Positions 3,438-35,454 of a DNA stretch of 64,000 bases are shown in pieces. The stretch covers positions 2,112,001 to 2,176,000 of the forward strand of contig CBDAOI010000004.1 of NCBI GenBank assembly GCA_965198005.1, read 5' to 3'. This DNA comes from Spirochaetia bacterium. GTDB taxonomy: Bacteria; Spirochaetota; Spirochaetia; SZUA-6; Bin103. How positions within the stretch are numbered: position 1 is the first letter of the stretch; every line of letters begins with the position of its first letter. The notes under the pieces were generated by a model, which worked only from the letters and a program-made list of their open reading frames with translations, was not told the DNA's origin and ran no database searches. The position numbers and the translations under genes were made by a program.

Positions 3438-6137
3438 TCATGCGGTGACCGTTTCGAGCCCTGCCACTTTGCCAATGCGATCGATGCGATAGTGAAAGTC
3501 CTTTTTGTTGATCGTGAACTGGAGCTCGTCGTTGGTACGGTGATCCCACAATTCCGCCCCGAGCGGCGACAGATAGGAAATGACGTGCCGCTCCGGATTG
3601 GACTCCCAGGGCCCGAGAATGACATATTCCTCCGCCGCGTTGCTGTCGATATTGGTCAAGGTCACGCGGGTCCCGAACGAGATCCGCGAGGCGTTTACCT
3701 CTGACAGGTCGAAGATCTGAGCATTCTGCAGGTCCTCCTGGAGACGTGAGACGGCATTCTTCAAATGCTCCTGCTTCTCCAGTGCCGCCTTGTACTCGGC
3801 GTTCTCACGCAGGTCTCCCTGTTGCAGCGCCAACCCGATTTCCTTCGAATTCTCGGGAATATCCACCTCCAGAAGGTGACGCAGTTCCCGCTGTCGTTCC
3901 TCGTATCCCATGCGCGTTACCAGCAATCCCATTCGTACCGAGTGGTGTTCGGCTTCTTCCGCAAACTGATAGGCGGGGAACTTCTCCTTGATCCGCTGTC
4001 GGACGCGGATCTTGATAGACGGATCAAGCTCCTTGACATCCTCCACCAAAGTGTAGATCCGCGTGATCGACTCTTCGTTGGCGTCTGCGATGAAACTCGT
4101 GAGACGGGCTTCCTTGAACAGATAGTCGAAAATCTGACGATTCAGCTTACGATTGACCGCAACCTCGCGCTTGTTGCTGATGTCCCGGTAGGTCAGGTCG
4201 AGCAGATGAATCATTCCGATCATCACCTTCTCTTCCTTGACACTCTGACTCTTCAGCAAGCGACTGTCCACGTCGTTGCGCACCAGCCACACGAACGGCT
4301 GCCGATGGTCCCGATAGTCATCGACAATGCCGGAGATCAGATTGCCGATTACGTCCGCCTGTCCCGCCCCGTGCAGCTCGTCGATAAGGTGGCTCGCGGG
4401 CCGGAACAGGAAGACCCGGGCGAATACCTGCGGCCACGCCGGAATCTCCGCACGCACATGGCCCAGGAACTCTGCCGCCAAGCCGGCCGCTTCGAGCGTC
4501 TCGTATACCTGTTCGAAGTCCTCGATCTCGCCGAACAGAGGTTCGAACATCAGGCGTACCCCGGGGTCGAGAAAGGGATACCTGCGCATGAGGCGCTCGA
4601 CAATCAGGAAGCTCGCGAGCGTGTTCTCGATCTGCCCGGTCGAGGCTTTCAGAAACCCGGCGAAGTACTGGAACATCTCCGCCAGGTACTCGGAGTCGGG
4701 TTGGGCGTGACTCAGAAAGTCATCGAGAGTTTGAATGCGATCGAAGAACGTCGGGTCCGAGCGAAACTTGTTGAATGTCTTCTCCTCGAACGAAATCGGG
4801 CTGTCTCGGACCGTGTACTCCTCGGACTTTCCTCCGCGCGTGCCGAACGACGGGTCCGTCTTCAATATCCGACGGGCCGTGGTGCTCCATTTCGACCATT
4901 CGTTCTGGCTGAGAATGCGCGGGGTCAGCTCGGCCTTGACGCGCTTCATGTCGGCCGCATTACCCAAGCTCTTGATCACTATCCGCAAAGCCCACGCGGG
5001 GTCTTCCTTGACCCGTGCCGTGAGCTTGTGCCGCGGCACAGTCGCTCGCAGCACCCAGATATGTTCGTTGCCGAGGATGTTGAGCGCGCTCACCGCCATT
5101 TTCAGCGACATGCGATGGTTTCGTTTCTTGAGGAAATCAATGACGAACACATCGTCCTTGATCTCCTTTATCCGGCCTAGTCCCCACGACCGGTGGAATA
5201 CGTAGTTCCCGACGTCGAAGCTGATGTGCTTTTCGAAGTCGGAGATCGCATCATACACATTGCGCCATGACTGAGTGAGGTTGGAAATCTTGACGTACTC
5301 GTCGAGATGGCTATGGCCCGCGTAGCGCTTGGTGTAAGCCGCCACCAACTCGGACCGGGCTCCGTTGTTCTTCGGATCGTGACTCAAGATCCGCTTGAGA
5401 ATGACGATTGACGAATCCCAAGCTTCTCGTTCGCTGTAGTAGGGGTAGAGCGCCTCGAGCAGAGTGACCGCCCGAACTCCGCCCAGGGCACGAACCGCCT
5501 TGGCTTCGACCTGGAGCAATCCCTCGAGATCCTCGTGCTGAAACTCTATCACCTTGTCCCACATCAGCCTGACCTGAGAGAACTGGCGGCGATTTATGTA
5601 ACGATGAAGCGCCTTCTTGTGGTAGATCAAGGCGCCATCCAGGTCGCCCTCCTGATAGCGCTTCTCGGCCAGCGCCTTGACCGTGTCCGCGTCCTCGAAG
5701 TCGACCTTGATCAGCCGCTCCCAGACGTCGAACTGGCGCTCGGGCTCATCCTTCTTGGCGTAGGTGTCGGCCAGGGTACGGAGGGCGAACTTGTTTTCGC
5801 CGTAGCTCAGGATCCGTTCACACAGGTGTTGGACGATGTTCCAGCGCTCGTGTTCGATGAACATGTTGACCAGCACTATCAGATTGGAATCGTCCACCAA
5901 CCGCCTGCCGAGGGCGATGATGCCGGACAGATACAGGGCGATGATGCTGTCACGGCTCGCCTCGAGGTGACCGTCACACAAGCGCAGCACTTCGTTCTGA
6001 ACGCCCGCCTCGGTTACCTCTTCGATGGCCGCGTCCAGCAACTCGAAACTAGAAATGGAGTGCTCGGAGCGGGCCGCCCGGGTCCACTTTTCCTCGTTGA
6101 GGTATTCGTTGATACGACTCAGGATCTGCTCTGACAT
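3438..6137 (-). CDS. greA: Transcription elongation factor GreA, long spirochaete form
   Basis: C-terminal GDLRENAEYKAA and ISYLSPLG motifs after a long helical/TPR-like N-terminus; GAGGA RBS. Confidence 0.93.
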   Translation of the reverse strand: MSEQILSRINEYLNEEKWTRAARSEHSISSFELLDAAIEEVTEAGVQNEVLRLCDGHLEASRDSIIALYLSGIIALGRRLVDDSNLIVLVNMFIEHERWNIVQHLCERILSYGENKFALRTLADTYAKKDEPERQFDVWERLIKVDFEDADTVKALAEKRYQEGDLDGALIYHKKALHRYINRRQFSQVRLMWDKVIEFQHEDLEGLLQVEAKAVRALGGVRAVTLLEALYPYYSEREAWDSSIVILKRILSHDPKNNGARSELVAAYTKRYAGHSHLDEYVKISNLTQSWRNVYDAISDFEKHISFDVGNYVFHRSWGLGRIKEIKDDVFVIDFLKKRNHRMSLKMAVSALNILGNEHIWVLRATVPRHKLTARVKEDPAWALRIVIKSLGNAADMKRVKAELTPRILSQNEWSKWSTTARRILKTDPSFGTRGGKSEEYTVRDSPISFEEKTFNKFRSDPTFFDRIQTLDDFLSHAQPDSEYLAEMFQYFAGFLKASTGQIENTLASFLIVERLMRRYPFLDPGVRLMFEPLFGEIEDFEQVYETLEAAGLAAEFLGHVRAEIPAWPQVFARVFLFRPASHLIDELHGAGQADVIGNLISGIVDDYRDHRQPFVWLVRNDVDSRLLKSQSVKEEKVMIGMIHLLDLTYRDISNKREVAVNRKLNRQIFDYLFKEARLTSFIADANEESITRIYTLVEDVKELDPSIKIRVRQRIKEKFPAYQFAEEAEHHSVRMGLLVTRMGYEERQRELRHLLEVDIPENSKEIGLALQQGDLRENAEYKAALEKQEHLKNAVSRLQEDLQNAQIFDLSEVNASRISFGTRVTLTNIDSNAAEEYVILGPWESNPERHVISYLSPLGAELWDHRTNDELQFTINKKDFHYRIDRIGKVAGLETVTA

Positions 6138-22224: not shown

Positions 22225-22297
22225 AGCCAGAAAGGGGATTCGAACCCCTGACCTGTTCATTACGAGTGAACCGCTCTGCCAACTGAGCTATTCTGGC
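22225..22297 (-). tRNA. tRNA-Thr(CGT)
   Basis: Reverse complement GCCAGAATAGCTCAGTTGGCAGAGCGGTTCACT-CGT-AATGAACAGGTCAGGGGTTCGAATCCCCTTTCTGGCT folds as a cloverleaf; CCA not encoded. Confidence 0.96.
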
Positions 22298-22352: not shown

Positions 22353-23027
22353 TCAGTCTTCGCTGGCCGGCGCGGCCAATCCATCCAGCAGCAACCCGGT
22401 GAACGCGTCCGCGAGTCGGTCGCCGGCAGCCAGCAGCGCCTGCATCTGGGTATCTCCCATCTGGGCGAGCAGGTCGATCCCGAGACTGATGGCGTACACC
22501 AGGCGGGCCACCACCGGCAGGTCCACCGGGCGGACCACCCCGGCCTCGACTCCGGCCTGCAGACCGCGTTCCGCCTTGGCGACCCCCGGACGGATCAGGT
22601 GGCCATATACGTACTCCGTCAGCTCGGCGTCCGCCAGCACCGCGGACAGCAGCGCGGTCAAGGTTTGCCGCTGTGGCCGCCCGGTGCGGACCCGGGCACT
22701 GATCACGTGCCGATAGCGGCTGCGCAGGTCTTCGCCCGCGGCGCCCGGCGGCGCACCGGCAGCGCGAATCTCTTCGATCACCCGCTGCAGAACGCCCAGA
22801 AACAGATCGCGCTTGCTGTCGAAATGATGGTACAGCGCCCCTTCCGACAGTTTCGCGGCGGCCGCGATCGTCTTGGTCGTGGCCTGCTCGTAGCCGCGCT
22901 CGGTAAATACCCGCGTGGCTGCCCGAATGATGTGCTCGCGCCGACCTCTCCCGGCGCGCCGACTTTCCGGTTTCGGTTCGGGCGCGGCCTGACGGCCCGT
23001 CTCCGATGGCTCTCGCTGCAACGCCAT
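22353..23027 (-). CDS. TetR/AcrR family transcriptional regulator
   Basis: HTH IIRAATRVFTERGYEQAT...GALYHHFDSKRDL; GGGGAGGGGAG RBS before ATG 23027. Confidence 0.92.
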   Translation of the reverse strand: MALQREPSETGRQAAPEPKPESRRAGRGRREHIIRAATRVFTERGYEQATTKTIAAAAKLSEGALYHHFDSKRDLFLGVLQRVIEEIRAAGAPPGAAGEDLRSRYRHVISARVRTGRPQRQTLTALLSAVLADAELTEYVYGHLIRPGVAKAERGLQAGVEAGVVRPVDLPVVARLVYAISLGIDLLAQMGDTQMQALLAAGDRLADAFTGLLLDGLAAPASED

Positions 23028-23154
23028 GTCAGTCTCCCCTCCCCAAGGTAGTGAGTGCTTGCTCCTAGCGCTAATGTACTGAGTAGTCCGCGTGCGCGTC
23101 CACCGGTGTGCGCCGGATGCGCCGCAGCCGCCGTAGCGGTACACTGCCAGCATC

Positions 23155-24714
23155 ATGCTGCCCAACCCGTCGTGGATCGGGTCCGCACTGAGCGATCTGC
23201 TGGTCGGAGATCCTGACCGCCACCGGCGTCCGGACTATCGGCAGGCGTTTTTCCTGGCACTGGCCAAGGTGCTTGGCGCAGCGGCCTGGGTCGACGCGCC
23301 GATCAATCAGAATGAAGTGAACGTGATCAAGACGCTGCTGCACGACCTTTCTCCACGCCTGACGGCCCGCGAGCTGCAGCGGGTCGCGCGGTACCTCGAG
23401 GAGTCGGTCCCCGATGAACACTTTCGGGAGCTGGTGTCTCAGCTCGGCCGGTTCACGCGGCGCCGGGCGCGCCTGCGGTTTGCCGTGACCCGGCTGCTGG
23501 CGCTGCTGGCCGCGGACGGCACGCCGAACCAGCCGGAGCAGGAACTGTTCGAGCGGACCTGCGCGATTCTGGGCTGGAGTGGTGGTGATGGTGGTGGCGA
23601 TGAGGAGCCGCCGGCGGCGAGCGCCCCGGGCCGCTCGCACCGGGTGCGGACGGGACTGCAGTTGGGCCGTCTCACCGGGCAGCCGGACGATGCTGCGCCA
23701 CGGAGCCTGCTCGACCGGGTACGCACGGCCACCTGGGAGCGGCTGCAGGCGGGCGGCGGACACGAGACTCCACCTGACAAACTGTACGTCCTGGCGGCGA
23801 CGGTGGCGTTTCTGCGCGGCGCCCGCGTCGGGAACGTCGGCGAAGACGCGGAGCTGGTTGGCTTTACCGCAGCGGTGTCGGCGGTGCCCGACGACGTGGC
23901 GGAAGCAGCCCTTGCTGCGGCCCGGCAGTTCCCGGCGGCACCGGCCGAGCTGCCGGCGTTGGCCGCGGAGCTGCAGCGGCGCACGGATGCCACCGAGCTT
24001 GGTTCACTGGCGCAACTGTTGAACGCCATGGCCGACGGCGAGGCGGCACTGCGCCGGCTGCGTCAACTTGCCAGCCCCGCTGACCGCATGGCGGCCACCA
24101 TTGACCACCTGGTGTACGGCGTGCCCGAACTGGAGGCCGGCGTCGCGTTGCTGCGCGAACAATTCGGAGTGTCCGCCGTCTACGGGGGCCGGCATGAAGG
24201 ACGCGGCACGCACAACGCGCTGCTCGGATTGGGCGGCGATGCATATTTGGAGGTGATCGCGCCGGACCCTTCCCAGCCGTCGAACCCGGGGGGCCGGAGG
24301 TTTCTCCTGGAAGACCTGGATCGGCCGCGTCTGATCACGTTCGCCGTCAGAGTTCGCGGCCTCGAGCAGCGGCGCGCACGCGCTGTCAGCCGCGGCTACG
24401 ATCCGGGACCGGTGACTGCCATGAGTCGGCGGCGGCCGGACGGCGCGCTGTTGCGCTGGCAACTGTGCCGCGCCCCGGAACCGCCGTTTGGAGGGGTCGT
24501 GCCGTTTCTGATCGATTGGGGAGCCACGCCCAGTCCCGCACACTCTGCGCCGGCCGGCTGCCGCCTGGACCGACTGCAGGTCGCTCATCCCGATCCGGAC
24601 CGGGTCCGTCAGGTGCTGCACGCCATCGACGTAACGATTCCGGCTGAGCGCGGCCCGGCGCCCGCGCTGCATGCCGAGTTGCAAACCCCAAGAGGACGTG
24701 TCATGCTCCGTTAG
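23155..24714 (+). CDS. TerB-like domain(s) fused to a C-terminal VOC/glyoxalase-like domain
   Basis: LAKVLGAAAWVDAP..E and LAADG (TerB-like); IDHLVY...GGRHEGRGTHNALLGLG..YLEVIAPDP, PFLIDW (Glyoxalase_3-like). Confidence 0.75.
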   Translation: MLPNPSWIGSALSDLLVGDPDRHRRPDYRQAFFLALAKVLGAAAWVDAPINQNEVNVIKTLLHDLSPRLTARELQRVARYLEESVPDEHFRELVSQLGRFTRRRARLRFAVTRLLALLAADGTPNQPEQELFERTCAILGWSGGDGGGDEEPPAASAPGRSHRVRTGLQLGRLTGQPDDAAPRSLLDRVRTATWERLQAGGGHETPPDKLYVLAATVAFLRGARVGNVGEDAELVGFTAAVSAVPDDVAEAALAAARQFPAAPAELPALAAELQRRTDATELGSLAQLLNAMADGEAALRRLRQLASPADRMAATIDHLVYGVPELEAGVALLREQFGVSAVYGGRHEGRGTHNALLGLGGDAYLEVIAPDPSQPSNPGGRRFLLEDLDRPRLITFAVRVRGLEQRRARAVSRGYDPGPVTAMSRRRPDGALLRWQLCRAPEPPFGGVVPFLIDWGATPSPAHSAPAGCRLDRLQVAHPDPDRVRQVLHAIDVTIPAERGPAPALHAELQTPRGRVMLR

Positions 24715-32274: not shown

Positions 32275-32667
32275 ATGCTGCTCCGCGTGAGCGCCGTGGT
32301 GCTGATCGTGGCCGCGGCCGCGGCCGTGTGCGGGCTCATCATCGCCACGCCCTTGTGGCTGTTCGCGACTCGGGCCACCGCCTCTTACAACGTGTTCGTC
32401 GCGGTCGTCGCGGTCGCCGCGCTGGGCGGGACGCTGGCTGTGCGCCTGGCGCGCCGTACGCGCCAGGCGCACAGCGGCCGCCGCGCATTGGTTTCCGGAG
32501 CGCAGGTCCTGGCCCGCACGGTCGCGGCGATCGCAATTGCCTGCGCGCATCTGCTGGCCTTCACCCGCTGGGGGTTGATCGCTGGACTGGTGGGCCTGCC
32601 GGTCACGCTCGGGGTGCTCGGGGTGCTCCTGTTCGGGGGCCGCCGTCCGCGCTCCGAGTCGTTCTGA
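32275..32667 (+). CDS. Hypothetical membrane protein
   Basis: Four hydrophobic segments; start uncertain. Confidence 0.55.
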   Translation: MLLRVSAVVLIVAAAAAVCGLIIATPLWLFATRATASYNVFVAVVAVAALGGTLAVRLARRTRQAHSGRRALVSGAQVLARTVAAIAIACAHLLAFTRWGLIAGLVGLPVTLGVLGVLLFGGRRPRSESF

Positions 32668-32685
32668 GAAATCTGAGAATACTGC

Positions 32686-32715
32686 TTGAACGCTTATCGG
32701 AATGTTCGGTATAAT
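32686..32715 (+). promoter_or_regulatory. Sigma70-type promoter
   Basis: TTGAAC-N18-TATAAT. Confidence 0.75.
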
Positions 32716-32720
32716 CGCTG

Positions 32721-32912
32721 GTGACGAGCCGGAGGAGCGGTGGTGGTGCACTCGGCGGGTTCCGGGAAAGCCCACATCGTTGCTTCAGGTTTCGTCCATG
32801 CTGTCGATAATTAGGGTGTCGGTAACAGCTATAGTTCCCCTCCCAGTTTACTATACTGATGTGCCGGCACCCGAAAGGGTAGGTCGGTCCCGTCCCGGGG
32901 CCGACCTTTTTT
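32721..32912 (+). ncRNA. Candidate structured RNA (leader/attenuator or sRNA), family unassigned
   Basis: Between promoter and terminator; two long hairpins; no credible ORF. Confidence 0.6.
32881..32912 (+). terminator. Intrinsic terminator
   Basis: AGGTCGGTCCCG-tcc-CGGGGCCGACCT followed by a T run. Confidence 0.85.
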
Positions 32913-32952
32913 ATTGCCGCTGCCACCGGCTCGGGCGCCCGGCAGGAGCGCT

Positions 32953-35454
32953 GTGCGCGTGACGCGTTCGCCGTGGCGGGTGGTGGTGTTCGCCGCCTGC
33001 ACGCTCGCAGCCGCCGGGGTGGGCGCACTGCTCGGGCTTGCGCTCGCCACCACGTCCAACATTCGCGGCCTCGACGAACCGGACCGGCCGGCGCTGCCGG
33101 CCCGGATTCTGGACCGGCACGGCCGGTTGATCACGGAGTTCTTTCGCGACGAAAAGCGGGAGATCATTCGCATCGAGGAGATCCCGCCACACTTGGTCCA
33201 CGCACTGCTGACCCGCGAAGACCGCCACTTCTTCCGGCATCGCGGGTTCCGGATTCCCGACATCGTTCGCGCTGCCTGGCATCTGGCAACCGGCCAGTTT
33301 CGCTCCGGGGCCTCCACCATTACCCAACAACTGGCCGGTTCCCTGTATGCCGACCGTAGCGAATTCTCGATTCGGCGCAAGCTGGTCGAGCTGTGGTGGG
33401 CCATTCAACTGGAGCGCTGGCTGACCAAGAACGAGATCCTGGAGCGCTATCTCAATCTGGTGTACTTCGGGAAAGGCACGCACGGCGTGGAGGCCGCTTC
33501 CCAGTTCTACTTCAAGCACTCGGCGCGCGAGGTGACCCTGGCCGAAAGCGCGATGCTGGTCATCCAGCTCAACCGGCCCGGCGGAAACTCACCCATCAAC
33601 TACCCGAACCGGGCCCGGCCACTGCAACTGGAGATTCTGAATCAGATGGTCGACCTGGGTTACGCCACGCGCGAACGGGCGGAGCTGTCCTTTCAACAGT
33701 ATTGGGACAGCTACGACTTCACGCGGTCGAACCAGGCCACGGCGTTTGTCGAACGTGAGGACGCCGCTCCCTACTTCAGCGAGTACGTCCGCCAGCAGCT
33801 TGACGAGTTGCTGCTGGGGTCGATGGACGTCTACGAAGAGGGATTGATCGTGCACACCACGCTCGACCTGGACTACCAGCGGGCCGCCCGCGGCACCCTC
33901 GCCCGCCACCTGCGGCGCGTCAACGACACCCGTGCCGCTCAAGCCGGCAGCCGGCTCAGGACCGCCGACCGCAGCTTTCTGCCGGTGCTCGACCTGCTGT
34001 CGCTCACCTTCAACGTCGAACAGATCCGTATCGCCGGCGTACGCGAACGCAAACAGGGTGTCGCCCGATTCGTCGATGGTATGGCGCCGACCCTCGACCT
34101 GCTCGGCATGATGCTGAACGCGGACGAACTGCGGTTCGTCTCTCAGGTCGCCTACCAGCGCGGCGAGCGGGACGCGCAGCGCACTCAGGTTGAGGCTGCG
34201 CTGGTGTCGCTCGATCCACGCACCGGCCACATCCTGGCCATGGTGGGTGGGAGCAAGTTCGAGACCGGCAACCAGTTCAACCGCGCCACCCAGGCGAAGC
34301 TGCAGCCGGGATCCGCCTTCAAGCCGTTGTACTACTCGGCAGCGATCAGTTCACGCCGCTTTACGCCCGCGTCGATGATCCTCGACGCGCCGGTCGTGTT
34401 CCGCAACGACGACGGCACCAACTACATTCCCTTGAACTACAAGGGCGAGTGGCAGGGGCGCGTCCTGTTGCGCCGGGCGCTGGCGAAGTCAATGAACGTT
34501 CCGTCGCTCAAGGTGCTCGACGAGATCGGTTTCGACGCCGCGATCGACCGTGCCAGCCGCATGCTCGGGATCACCGACCCGGAACAAGTCGAAGCCACGT
34601 TCCCGCGCAAGTACCCACTCGGGCTTGGCGTGATCGCCGTCTCGCCGCTGCAGATGGCGCGCGCCTACGCCACCTTCGCCAACCAGGGCAAGGCGGTGAC
34701 CCCGCTGGCGATTCAGTACATTGCCGATCGCCACGGCCGGGTGCTGCTGGAGGTGGAAAAGGAACTGCGCGCGCGGCAGAAGCTGGATCAGGACGAGTTG
34801 AGAATCATGACCCCGCAGGTGGCCTATATCATGACCGACATTCTCCGGAGCACCGTGGAGTGGGGTACGCTGCGCTGGGCGCGTGAACAGGCGGGAGGCT
34901 TCGACACCGCCATCGCCGGCAAGACCGGGACCACGCAGAACTGGTCGGATGCCTGGACCGTCGGCTTCAATCCCCGGGTCGTCACCGCGCTCTGGATGGG
35001 GTTCGATGAACGCGGAGAGACGTTGGGATTGTCGCTCACCGGCGCCACCGCCACGGGGCCGGCGTGGGCGCAGTACATGAAGGCGATCCAGCCGCAGGGA
35101 AACCTGCGGTTCAGTCGCCCCGACACCGGCTTGATCGAAGTCACCGTGAACGCCCGTTCGGGCCTGCTGCCCGCGGGCACCCCCGGCGAGGAGATAATTA
35201 CGGAACTGTTTCTGATCGGCACCGATCCCAAGGAGCGTGACGCCTTGGCGAGTCTCGAAACCGCCCGGCGGGAAACCGTCAAGCAGAACATTCGCAACGC
35301 GTTGCTCACGATCGATCTCGGCCCCGCGCCTCGAATCGAGCCCGTGGCGCTTCCGGCCGGGGTGGCGACGGCGCTCCCGTCAAGTGGTACATTGGACCAG
35401 GGAGCCGGCACCCCGGCACCGGCCCGGCCGGGGTCCAATCCCCTGATCGACTGA
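32953..35454 (+). CDS. mrcA: Class A penicillin-binding protein 1A
   Basis: EDRHFFRH, GASTITQQL, RKLVE, YLN (glycosyltransferase); GSAFKP, SMN, KTGT (transpeptidase); AGGAG RBS. Confidence 0.93.
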   Translation: MRVTRSPWRVVVFAACTLAAAGVGALLGLALATTSNIRGLDEPDRPALPARILDRHGRLITEFFRDEKREIIRIEEIPPHLVHALLTREDRHFFRHRGFRIPDIVRAAWHLATGQFRSGASTITQQLAGSLYADRSEFSIRRKLVELWWAIQLERWLTKNEILERYLNLVYFGKGTHGVEAASQFYFKHSAREVTLAESAMLVIQLNRPGGNSPINYPNRARPLQLEILNQMVDLGYATRERAELSFQQYWDSYDFTRSNQATAFVEREDAAPYFSEYVRQQLDELLLGSMDVYEEGLIVHTTLDLDYQRAARGTLARHLRRVNDTRAAQAGSRLRTADRSFLPVLDLLSLTFNVEQIRIAGVRERKQGVARFVDGMAPTLDLLGMMLNADELRFVSQVAYQRGERDAQRTQVEAALVSLDPRTGHILAMVGGSKFETGNQFNRATQAKLQPGSAFKPLYYSAAISSRRFTPASMILDAPVVFRNDDGTNYIPLNYKGEWQGRVLLRRALAKSMNVPSLKVLDEIGFDAAIDRASRMLGITDPEQVEATFPRKYPLGLGVIAVSPLQMARAYATFANQGKAVTPLAIQYIADRHGRVLLEVEKELRARQKLDQDELRIMTPQVAYIMTDILRSTVEWGTLRWAREQAGGFDTAIAGKTGTTQNWSDAWTVGFNPRVVTALWMGFDERGETLGLSLTGATATGPAWAQYMKAIQPQGNLRFSRPDTGLIEVTVNARSGLLPAGTPGEEIITELFLIGTDPKERDALASLETARRETVKQNIRNALLTIDLGPAPRIEPVALPAGVATALPSSGTLDQGAGTPAPARPGSNPLID

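Follow-up and report, generated by a model that had tools for sequence, protein, structure and literature searches.

In a 64,000-nt stretch of the genome of a Spirochaetia bacterium (contig CBDAOI010000004.1 of assembly GCA_965198005.1; hereafter called the window, with positions counted from its first letter), a conserved structured RNA is located at 32815-32912 on the forward strand, directly upstream of the gene for PBP1A, a class A penicillin-binding protein. On balance, we consider it probable that this region specifies a stand-alone, trans-acting small RNA (sRNA) of ~97 nt, which would be FliA-dependent, would carry an anti-Shine-Dalgarno (anti-SD) seed and would represent a Spirochaetota-wide family. 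The initial annotation had proposed a riboswitch or attenuator that gates PBP1A expression, for a longer segment which starts at 32686, and had kept a standalone sRNA, such as a divergent 6S RNA, as a fallback. The standalone sRNA is the part of that proposal which fits the family: a promoter motif of its own, a terminator and a conserved loop that is single-stranded in all 26 members were found, and no conserved open reading frame (ORF) was seen. Gating of PBP1A is not supported, as there is no conserved antiterminator and as most relatives have a separate PBP1A promoter.

Extent and distribution of the conserved RNA

PBP1A from the window was aligned with 19 homologues and this alignment was used to scan genome contigs. 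The scan resulted in 80 loci among the matches listed, the closest of which has 63% PBP1A identity; closer PBP1A proteins, 73-85% identical to that from the window, exist according to a protein database search. Spirochetes account for 45 of the 80 listed loci (L001-L043, L045 and L075, with L004 being without a taxon name) and other organisms for 35. Four of the spirochete loci (L023, L042, L045, and L075) have no upstream sequence, so that 41 could be used. The window is a high-GC stretch from an uncultured spirochete, and the named PBP1A homologues are from metagenome-assembled genomes (MAGs) of Spirochaetaceae, Spirochaetales or Spirochaetota.

When window 32668-32960 was used as query for nhmmer and blastn, significant similarity just 5′ of PBP1A was detected in 16 loci. 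This similarity covers only the 3′ half of the query (window ~32790-32938), and the nhmmer alignments start at window position ~32779 or further 3′. A search with a C-rich 8-mer increased the number of loci from 16 to 25. A covariance model (R1) was then built from eight members that aligned well, with their structure written by hand (alignment A4), and was searched on 81 sources. The 26 matches were used for alignment A6 and, from this, for model R2 and a second search round. With R2, the window and the 25 loci are found with 49-84 bits (E ≤ 1.8e-7). The next-best match is at E = 0.15, and the 35 non-spirochete loci gave no match. The core from the window itself is matched by the covariance models with 76-89 bits (E ~1e-13 to 1e-15).

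The family has 26 members (the window and 25 loci), with a length between 82 and 101 nt. Among the matches listed, the RNA core occurs upstream of PBP1A in 25 of the 41 Spirochaetota loci with upstream sequence. Carriers are termite-gut and rumen Treponema, environmental Spirochaetota and, with a reduced form, an Exilispira. The core was not found in 15 spirochete loci with upstream sequence, including the complete genome of T. vincentii. Within the region upstream of PBP1A, conservation is confined to window 32815-32912, which corresponds to an sRNA core of ~96-98 nt if the 5′ end is placed according to the promoter geometry described below.

The reduced variant from the Exilispira sp. MAG (L043:2818-2912) consists of a CCGATAT box, followed by a C-rich stretch and by the terminator, and is devoid of the hairpins P1 and P2 that are described in the next section. 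The gene upstream of it codes for a response regulator with a SpoIIE phosphatase domain. At L029 (2815-2900), a ~20-nt unit (…CACAGTTTTGCAA…) is repeated several times in tandem directly after the sRNA terminator.

In agreement with the initial annotation, the region has no credible ORF. There is no Pfam match, and an ORF of 86 aa (32702-32962) crosses the structured RNA. A small ORF as explanation for the conservation was rejected upon inspection of the aligned members, which showed no conserved ORF.

Structure and covariation

The RNA consists of three hairpins. The first one, P1 (32817-32869), is found in single-sequence folds and is backed by covariation. It is composed of a lower stem (32817-32824 paired with 32862-32869), a middle part (32826-32828 with 32856-32858) and an upper stem (32830-32835 with 32850-32855). 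In the lower stem as well as in the upper stem, 5 of 6 pairs have changed on both sides. The base of P1 had already been drawn as an anti-antiterminator (helix C) in the initial annotation, and this helix is real. P1 is followed by a small hairpin, P2 (CCC-GAAA-GGG, 32870-32879), with 92.8% of the cells paired and with all three pairs changed on both sides.

The third hairpin belongs to the intrinsic terminator (32881-32912), which had also been described before (helix A). It has a stem of 12 bp with nine GC pairs (32881-32907), which is followed by a run of six U up to 32912; 98.1% of the cells are paired and 7 of 8 pairs have changed on both sides. A simple terminator scan is not above chance when taken alone (one found, 0.9 expected), and we consider the terminator credible because it is conserved in 26 of 26 family members.

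For the whole structure, alignment A6 of the 26 sequences has 95.4% of the cells paired and both-side changes in 20 of 23 pairs, counts that lean towards the modelled structure since A6 has been fitted to the model. The covariation score is 0.43, compared to 0.165 ± 0.013 in column shuffles, none of which reached 0.43 in 500 trials, and to at most 0.10 when registers are slid in A6. As an independent check, each of the 26 family sequences was folded alone by minimum free energy (MFE), and the same three-hairpin architecture was obtained in all 26 cases. With MAFFT and RNAalifold on 25 sequences, the consensus fold was limited to the terminator and the upper stem of P1, since the alignment had misplaced the 3′ arm of this hairpin. 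In the window, the region 32720-32915 folds into three hairpins with -88.2 kcal/mol (z = -3.64), and none of 200 shuffled sequences is as stable.

The apical loop of P1 (UCCCCUCCCAGUUU, 32836-32849) contains the proposed anti-SD seed. The octamer CCCUCCCA (32838-32845) within this loop is C-rich, includes the anti-SD core CCUCC and does not vary among the 26 members. The MFE structures of all 26 leave it unpaired, with a mean P(unpaired) of 0.89-1.00.

The 5′ arm of P1, UGUCGG, is nearly invariant and is more conserved than pairing needs. It takes part in a three-way complementarity, as it can pair either with the core of the promoter -10 element (CCGAUA-like) or with the 3′ arm of P1 (CCGACA-like). 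The three segments are located at 32805-32809, 32817-32822, and 32864-32869 in the window, and all loci have equivalents.

Promoters in front of the RNA

Directly before the RNA, a conserved motif (TYAAG...N...CCGATAA) was found, which has the appearance of a sigma-28 (FliA)-type promoter. In the window, it is located at 32785-32810, with the -35-like sequence TCAGGTTT (32785-32792) and the -10-like sequence GTCGATAA (32803-32810). In the anchored alignment, none of the 26 members deviates from the CGA of the -10 element; the next T is present in 23 and the A which follows in all 26. A T[TC]AAG or TAAAG block occurs at a fixed distance, 17-22 nt upstream of CGA.

The sigma-28 (FliA) consensus is given as TAAAGTTT-n11-GCCGATAA, with a CGA core (PMC2859248). 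A spirochete example with a mapped start is the flaB2 promoter from Treponema denticola, which is reported to have TTAA at -35 and CCGATAA at -10, and for which binding of FliA (TDE2683) is mentioned as preliminary data of the authors (PMC9481697). The elements are the same as those found here, but the flaB2 promoter drives a flagellin mRNA according to that report, while the element described here precedes a non-coding RNA. Borrelia is reported to be without sigma-28 (PMC11607428).

With TAAAGTTT-N(10-12)-GCCGATAA, 15 of the 25 copies have at least 13 of 16 matches. As background, 1.31 million positions (all loci and the window) gave 20 sites with at least 13 of 16 matches at N11, and eight of these 20 are sRNA sites. 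By its sequence, the element can thus be counted among the sigma-28-type promoters, with an invariant CGA and a strong enrichment over background, the -35 from the window being among the weaker copies. The PBP1A promoters in the same organisms are of the canonical TTGACA type, and for this reason we regard TYAAG...CCGATAA as a distinct promoter class and not as a sloppy sigma-70 promoter. If transcription starts 6-9 nt after the CCGATAA box, the 5′ end would be at the foot of P1 (~32815-32818).

A second promoter, TTGAAC-N18-TATAAT (32686-32715), had been reported further upstream. It is indeed present and is sigma-70-like, with 10 of 12 consensus matches; one such site occurs in 1.6 kb compared to 0.1 expected from shuffles. 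The 5′ hairpin which had been described between this promoter and the core is also recovered, as a GC-rich imperfect hairpin in the MFE fold (about 32720-32802), and overlaps the -35 part of the internal promoter. For the 5′ hairpin and the sigma-70-like promoter, nhmmer and blastn gave no match in any of the 80 listed loci. The hairpin is apparently specific to the lineage of the window, and the sigma-70-like promoter could yield a long form of the RNA (~190 nt) in that genome.

Gene neighbourhood

The PBP1A gene (32959-35454, forward strand) has the Pfam domains Transgly and Transpeptidase, and its product is 100% identical to a database protein of 831 aa. The intergenic region lies between a 200-aa ORF, the stop codon of which is at 32667, and the start of PBP1A. 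Start signals are AGGAG at 32944-32948 and an alternative GTG at 32953, while the longest ORF begins with TTG at 32914. A distance of 40 nt between terminator and PBP1A start, as initially stated, holds for GTG 32953; the identical 831-aa protein points to GTG 32959 and thus to 46 nt.

In 24 of 25 loci, the RNA has kept its position and orientation relative to PBP1A. At L030, a gene for a methyl-accepting chemotaxis protein (L030:774-2867; dCache, and MCPsignal with 2.7e-32) is found between the sRNA and PBP1A, and this insertion fits the context of a chemotaxis and flagellar regulon.

Most of the 25 loci have a TTGACA-N17-TAnnnT promoter in the interval from the sRNA terminator to the start of PBP1A (examples, among L001-L041, are L008:2921-2971 and L039:2924-2983). 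In 18 of the 25 sRNA-bearing loci, a gap of 6-8 nt separates the end of its -10 element from the start codon. It follows from this spacing that the PBP1A mRNA would be leaderless or nearly leaderless. By eye, and without scoring, the same promoter was also seen in ~10 of the 15 Spirochaetota loci that do not have the RNA (e.g. upstream of position 3001 in L010, L011, L013, L024, L034, L038, and L040).

On the other side of the RNA, many relatives share the order M23 peptidase, a PEGA-domain protein of ~330 aa, sRNA, and PBP1A (examples of the segment upstream of the sRNA are L008:799-2766, L003:261-2701, L025:775-2708, and L041:763-2733). The upstream gene in relatives ends ~25-60 nt before the RNA and there is no terminator in between, so that the sRNA terminator probably also ends the upstream operon. 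The upstream genes in the window are different (FtsX/MacB-like, LolA-like, and two ORFs without a Pfam match). The RNA has been kept despite differing upstream genes in the window and at L004, L019, L030, L033, L035, and L043.

Among mRNA-like sites in the 64-kb window, the seed has its best match in the G-rich ribosome-binding site of a TetR-family gene (minus strand, ~23027-23045, -21.6 kcal/mol). The extended site (23016-23045, minus strand) is near-perfectly complementary to the sRNA loop, which makes the gene a candidate target. The position of the site also suggests that the true start of this gene, located at 22353-23165 on the minus strand, is ATG 23027 and not the start of the longest ORF.

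An unrelated observation concerns an ORF of 899 aa at 3438-6137 (minus strand), where GreA/GreB domains are restricted to the last ~160 residues and the N-terminal part has no Pfam match.

Alternative explanations

Several observations weigh against a FliA-dependent sRNA which acts in trans, in addition to the already mentioned leaning of alignment A6. The sigma-28 promoter appears as such by motif resemblance, and the same element could also pass for a weak sigma-70 promoter (TTAAAG-N17-GATAAT). The -35 element in the window is degenerate, and the window copy has 13 of 16 consensus matches at N10 and 12 of 16 at N11. A search of the window with the sigma-28 consensus, allowing up to three mismatches at N11, consequently gave no match, the copy having four mismatches at N11 and three at N10. 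No flagellar gene and no fliA is present within the 64-kb window, hence there is no internal control. The TetR-family site is anecdotal. The seed shows no enrichment for the start region of PBP1A (mean of -7.5 kcal/mol compared to -8.8 kcal/mol for internal controls), and PBP1A was rejected as a direct seed target because there is no excess complementarity. In the window, the 46 nt between terminator and PBP1A (32913-32958) contain no recognisable PBP1A promoter and no TAnnnT. Finally, the phylum-wide linkage to PBP1A and to the pair of M23 peptidase and PEGA protein is unexplained by a purely trans-acting role.

As an alternative, the RNA might be chiefly the 3′-terminal part of the upstream operon (M23 peptidase and PEGA protein in relatives) and not a base-pairing regulator driven by sigma-28. 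It would then either be derived from the 3′ untranslated region (UTR) or be a structured terminator module to which a protein binds, e.g. via the C-rich loop. Upstream transcripts must enter the RNA, given the short gap without a terminator. A UGUCGG/CCGACA stem that is more conserved than pairing alone requires would be consistent with such a module, as would the outcome of the seed-target checks (one anecdotal TetR site and no PBP1A enrichment). However, a mere 3′ UTR has no need for the promoter-like element, with invariant CGA and a -35 block at fixed distance, that precedes the RNA in 26 of 26 members. In addition, the RNA persists where the upstream genes are others, in the window and at the six loci named above, and the exposed CCUCC loop is a classic design of base-pairing sRNAs. 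We consider this explanation unlikely, while granting it some weight.

Another alternative concerns only the genome of the window, in which the ancestral PBP1A promoter may have decayed, so that PBP1A would be expressed by read-through of the terminator from the sigma-70-like promoter, the sigma-28-type promoter, or both, and without ligand sensing. As no promoter above threshold was found in 32913-32958, read-through into PBP1A is possible in this genome. TTGCCG (32914-32919) sits at the position where relatives have TTGACA and is not followed by TAnnnT, the AGGAG at 32944-32948 suggests a leadered mRNA, and the extra, strong sigma-70-like promoter upstream has been seen only here. Against this, the terminator is strong with its GC-rich 12-bp stem and six U, and consensus scans often miss promoters of GC-rich genomes. 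We attribute a rather low probability to such a role in cis.

According to the riboswitch or attenuator model, PBP1A has this RNA as its 5′ leader, and a ligand-dependent choice between terminator and antiterminator gates peptidoglycan synthesis. The conserved position and orientation relative to PBP1A fit this model, as does a highly conserved structured domain that is followed by a terminator. In the window, moreover, an SD sequence (AGGAG) is present without a detected separate PBP1A promoter, and the proposed antiterminator (helix B) and the additional helix D can be drawn. Of the chain of mutually exclusive helices on which the model had been built, A and C are conserved, but B and D are unsupported across homologues. 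For helix B, 72.0% of the cells are paired in the 26 homologues compared to 73.8% in shuffles, the central pair cannot form in 19 of 25, and a single cell has changes on both sides; this helix seems to be no more than self-complementarity of the CCGG type. For helix D (CGAUA with UGUCG), complementarity is kept (90.7% of the cells paired) but is the same as in shuffles (90.5%), as there is next to no variation on either side, and none of the pairs has changed on both sides. In four loci (L037, L039, L019, and L030) the 3′ side of helix D has changed, and there the P1 partner follows while the 5′ side does not. This 5′ half coincides with the -10 element of the sigma-28-type promoter.

The architecture of the RNA also argues against this model, as P1, which might be taken for a sensor domain, does not overlap with the terminator because P2 separates the two. 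With regard to a possible ligand-binding sensor, a conserved structure is present, the conserved nucleotides of which are in a simple hairpin loop and not in a multi-helix junction. In relatives, the PBP1A promoter is located 3′ of the terminator, and the leaderless mRNA which this implies has no 5′ UTR on which a riboswitch could act. Furthermore, L030 has another downstream gene and L043 is without P1 and P2. The riboswitch model is largely refuted for the RNA family, and we consider it very improbable.

A divergent 6S RNA, to which the length of the long form (~190 nt) might point, has next to no probability and is refuted by the predicted structure, which has three separate hairpins instead of a long duplex with a central bubble; conservation is limited to the ~97 nt at the 3′ end, and there is no Rfam 6S match at the gathering threshold or even at E ≤ 10.

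Comparison with known RNAs

That the structured RNA is without an Rfam family, as initially supposed, is borne out by scans with Rfam 15. At gathering thresholds, no RNA family, 6S included, was found in the region, and a tRNA (22225-22297, minus strand, 71.5 bits) is the sole match in the window. A permissive scan of 32600-33000 gave sub-threshold matches only, the best being ar14 (RF02344) with 21.4 bits compared to a gathering threshold of 58.8. In the scan of 19 related loci, only tRNAs were found. Full-text literature searches, which do not cover subscription journals, gave no description of this RNA in spirochetes. A survey from 2022 has six annotated sRNA families for the spirochete phylum in its Table 1 (PMC9029176). 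The RNA family described here is uncatalogued, while its kind is already known, be it that of flagellar-regulon sRNAs or that of sRNAs with a C-rich seed.

The sub-threshold matches to ar14, CC2171, DicF, and other Rfam families were rejected as noise which is caused by the terminator and the C-rich loop. In its design, the alphaproteobacterial ar14 is similar to the RNA described here, as it has C/U-rich anti-SD hairpin loops (loop CCUCCUCCC) which are followed by an intrinsic terminator. The two differ in phylum, in promoter type and in the copy number of the seed, and most stem pairs are flagged as non-canonical in the alignment. RsaE/RoxS of Firmicutes, sRNAs with C-rich loops, reportedly share this design of an anti-SD loop and a terminator.

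Two small RNAs from Campylobacter jejuni are related in logic (PMC11187230). According to this report, CJnc170 (FlmR) belongs to the flagellar sigma cascade and is an unprocessed FliA-dependent transcript, and its partner CJnc230 (FlmE) has a single-stranded anti-SD motif and represses translation of flagellar regulators. We propose that the spirochete RNA shares with them a logic of post-transcriptional fine-tuning of flagellar biogenesis. Kinship in sequence or structure is not to be expected. CJnc170 is given with 47 nt compared to ~97 nt here. The C. jejuni seed is described as being of the CCUU type and located between stem-loops, while it is in a hairpin loop in the spirochete RNA. FliA dependence and targets are experimental in the C. 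jejuni report and are predicted for the spirochete RNA.

In Escherichia coli, sRNAs which depend on sigma-28 are unrelated in sequence to the spirochete RNA, and the latter is found in a cell-wall neighbourhood and not in a flagellar one. These E. coli sRNAs are named MotR, FliX, FlgO, and UhpU and are Hfq-dependent. They are described as originating from sigma-28-dependent flagellar units and as acting by base pairing; the same source describes them as UTR-derived (PMC10578931), while the spirochete RNA has a promoter-like element of its own.

Proposed function and significance

For a FliA-dependent sRNA, the following mechanism can be envisaged. Transcription would start at the foot of P1, driven by the sigma-28 (FliA)-type promoter, and would end at the intrinsic terminator. 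In the window genome, the upstream sigma-70-like promoter may add a lineage-specific 5′ extension. P1 would present its C-rich loop (CCCUCCCA) in single-stranded form at the tip, and translation of target mRNAs may be blocked when this loop pairs with their G-rich ribosome-binding sites. The result would be a post-transcriptional layer on the late flagellar and chemotaxis regulon.

A more speculative idea, to which we assign only a small chance, is that a phylum-wide sRNA driven by the flagellar sigma factor has been locked into the spirochete cell-wall gene cluster (M23 peptidase, PEGA protein, sRNA, and PBP1A) and couples the assembly of periplasmic flagella to growth or remodelling of peptidoglycan. 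The coupling might occur by anti-SD repression of mRNAs for cell-wall or envelope proteins, by sigma-28-driven read-through into PBP1A, or by both, and the conserved CCGAUA/UGUCGG/CCGACA complementarity might let the RNA switch between a form embedded in the operon and a free one.

The analysis corrects a false lead, as there is no evidence for a PBP1A riboswitch. As a by-product, it indicates that the PBP1A mRNA of many spirochetes apparently originates from a conserved promoter and is leaderless. To our knowledge, very few regulatory RNAs have been found in spirochetes, and we are aware of little work on post-transcriptional control of periplasmic flagella outside CsrA. A conserved and covarying RNA family, with a flagellar-type promoter and a loop that is complementary to ribosome-binding sites, provides a concrete and testable entry point to this field.

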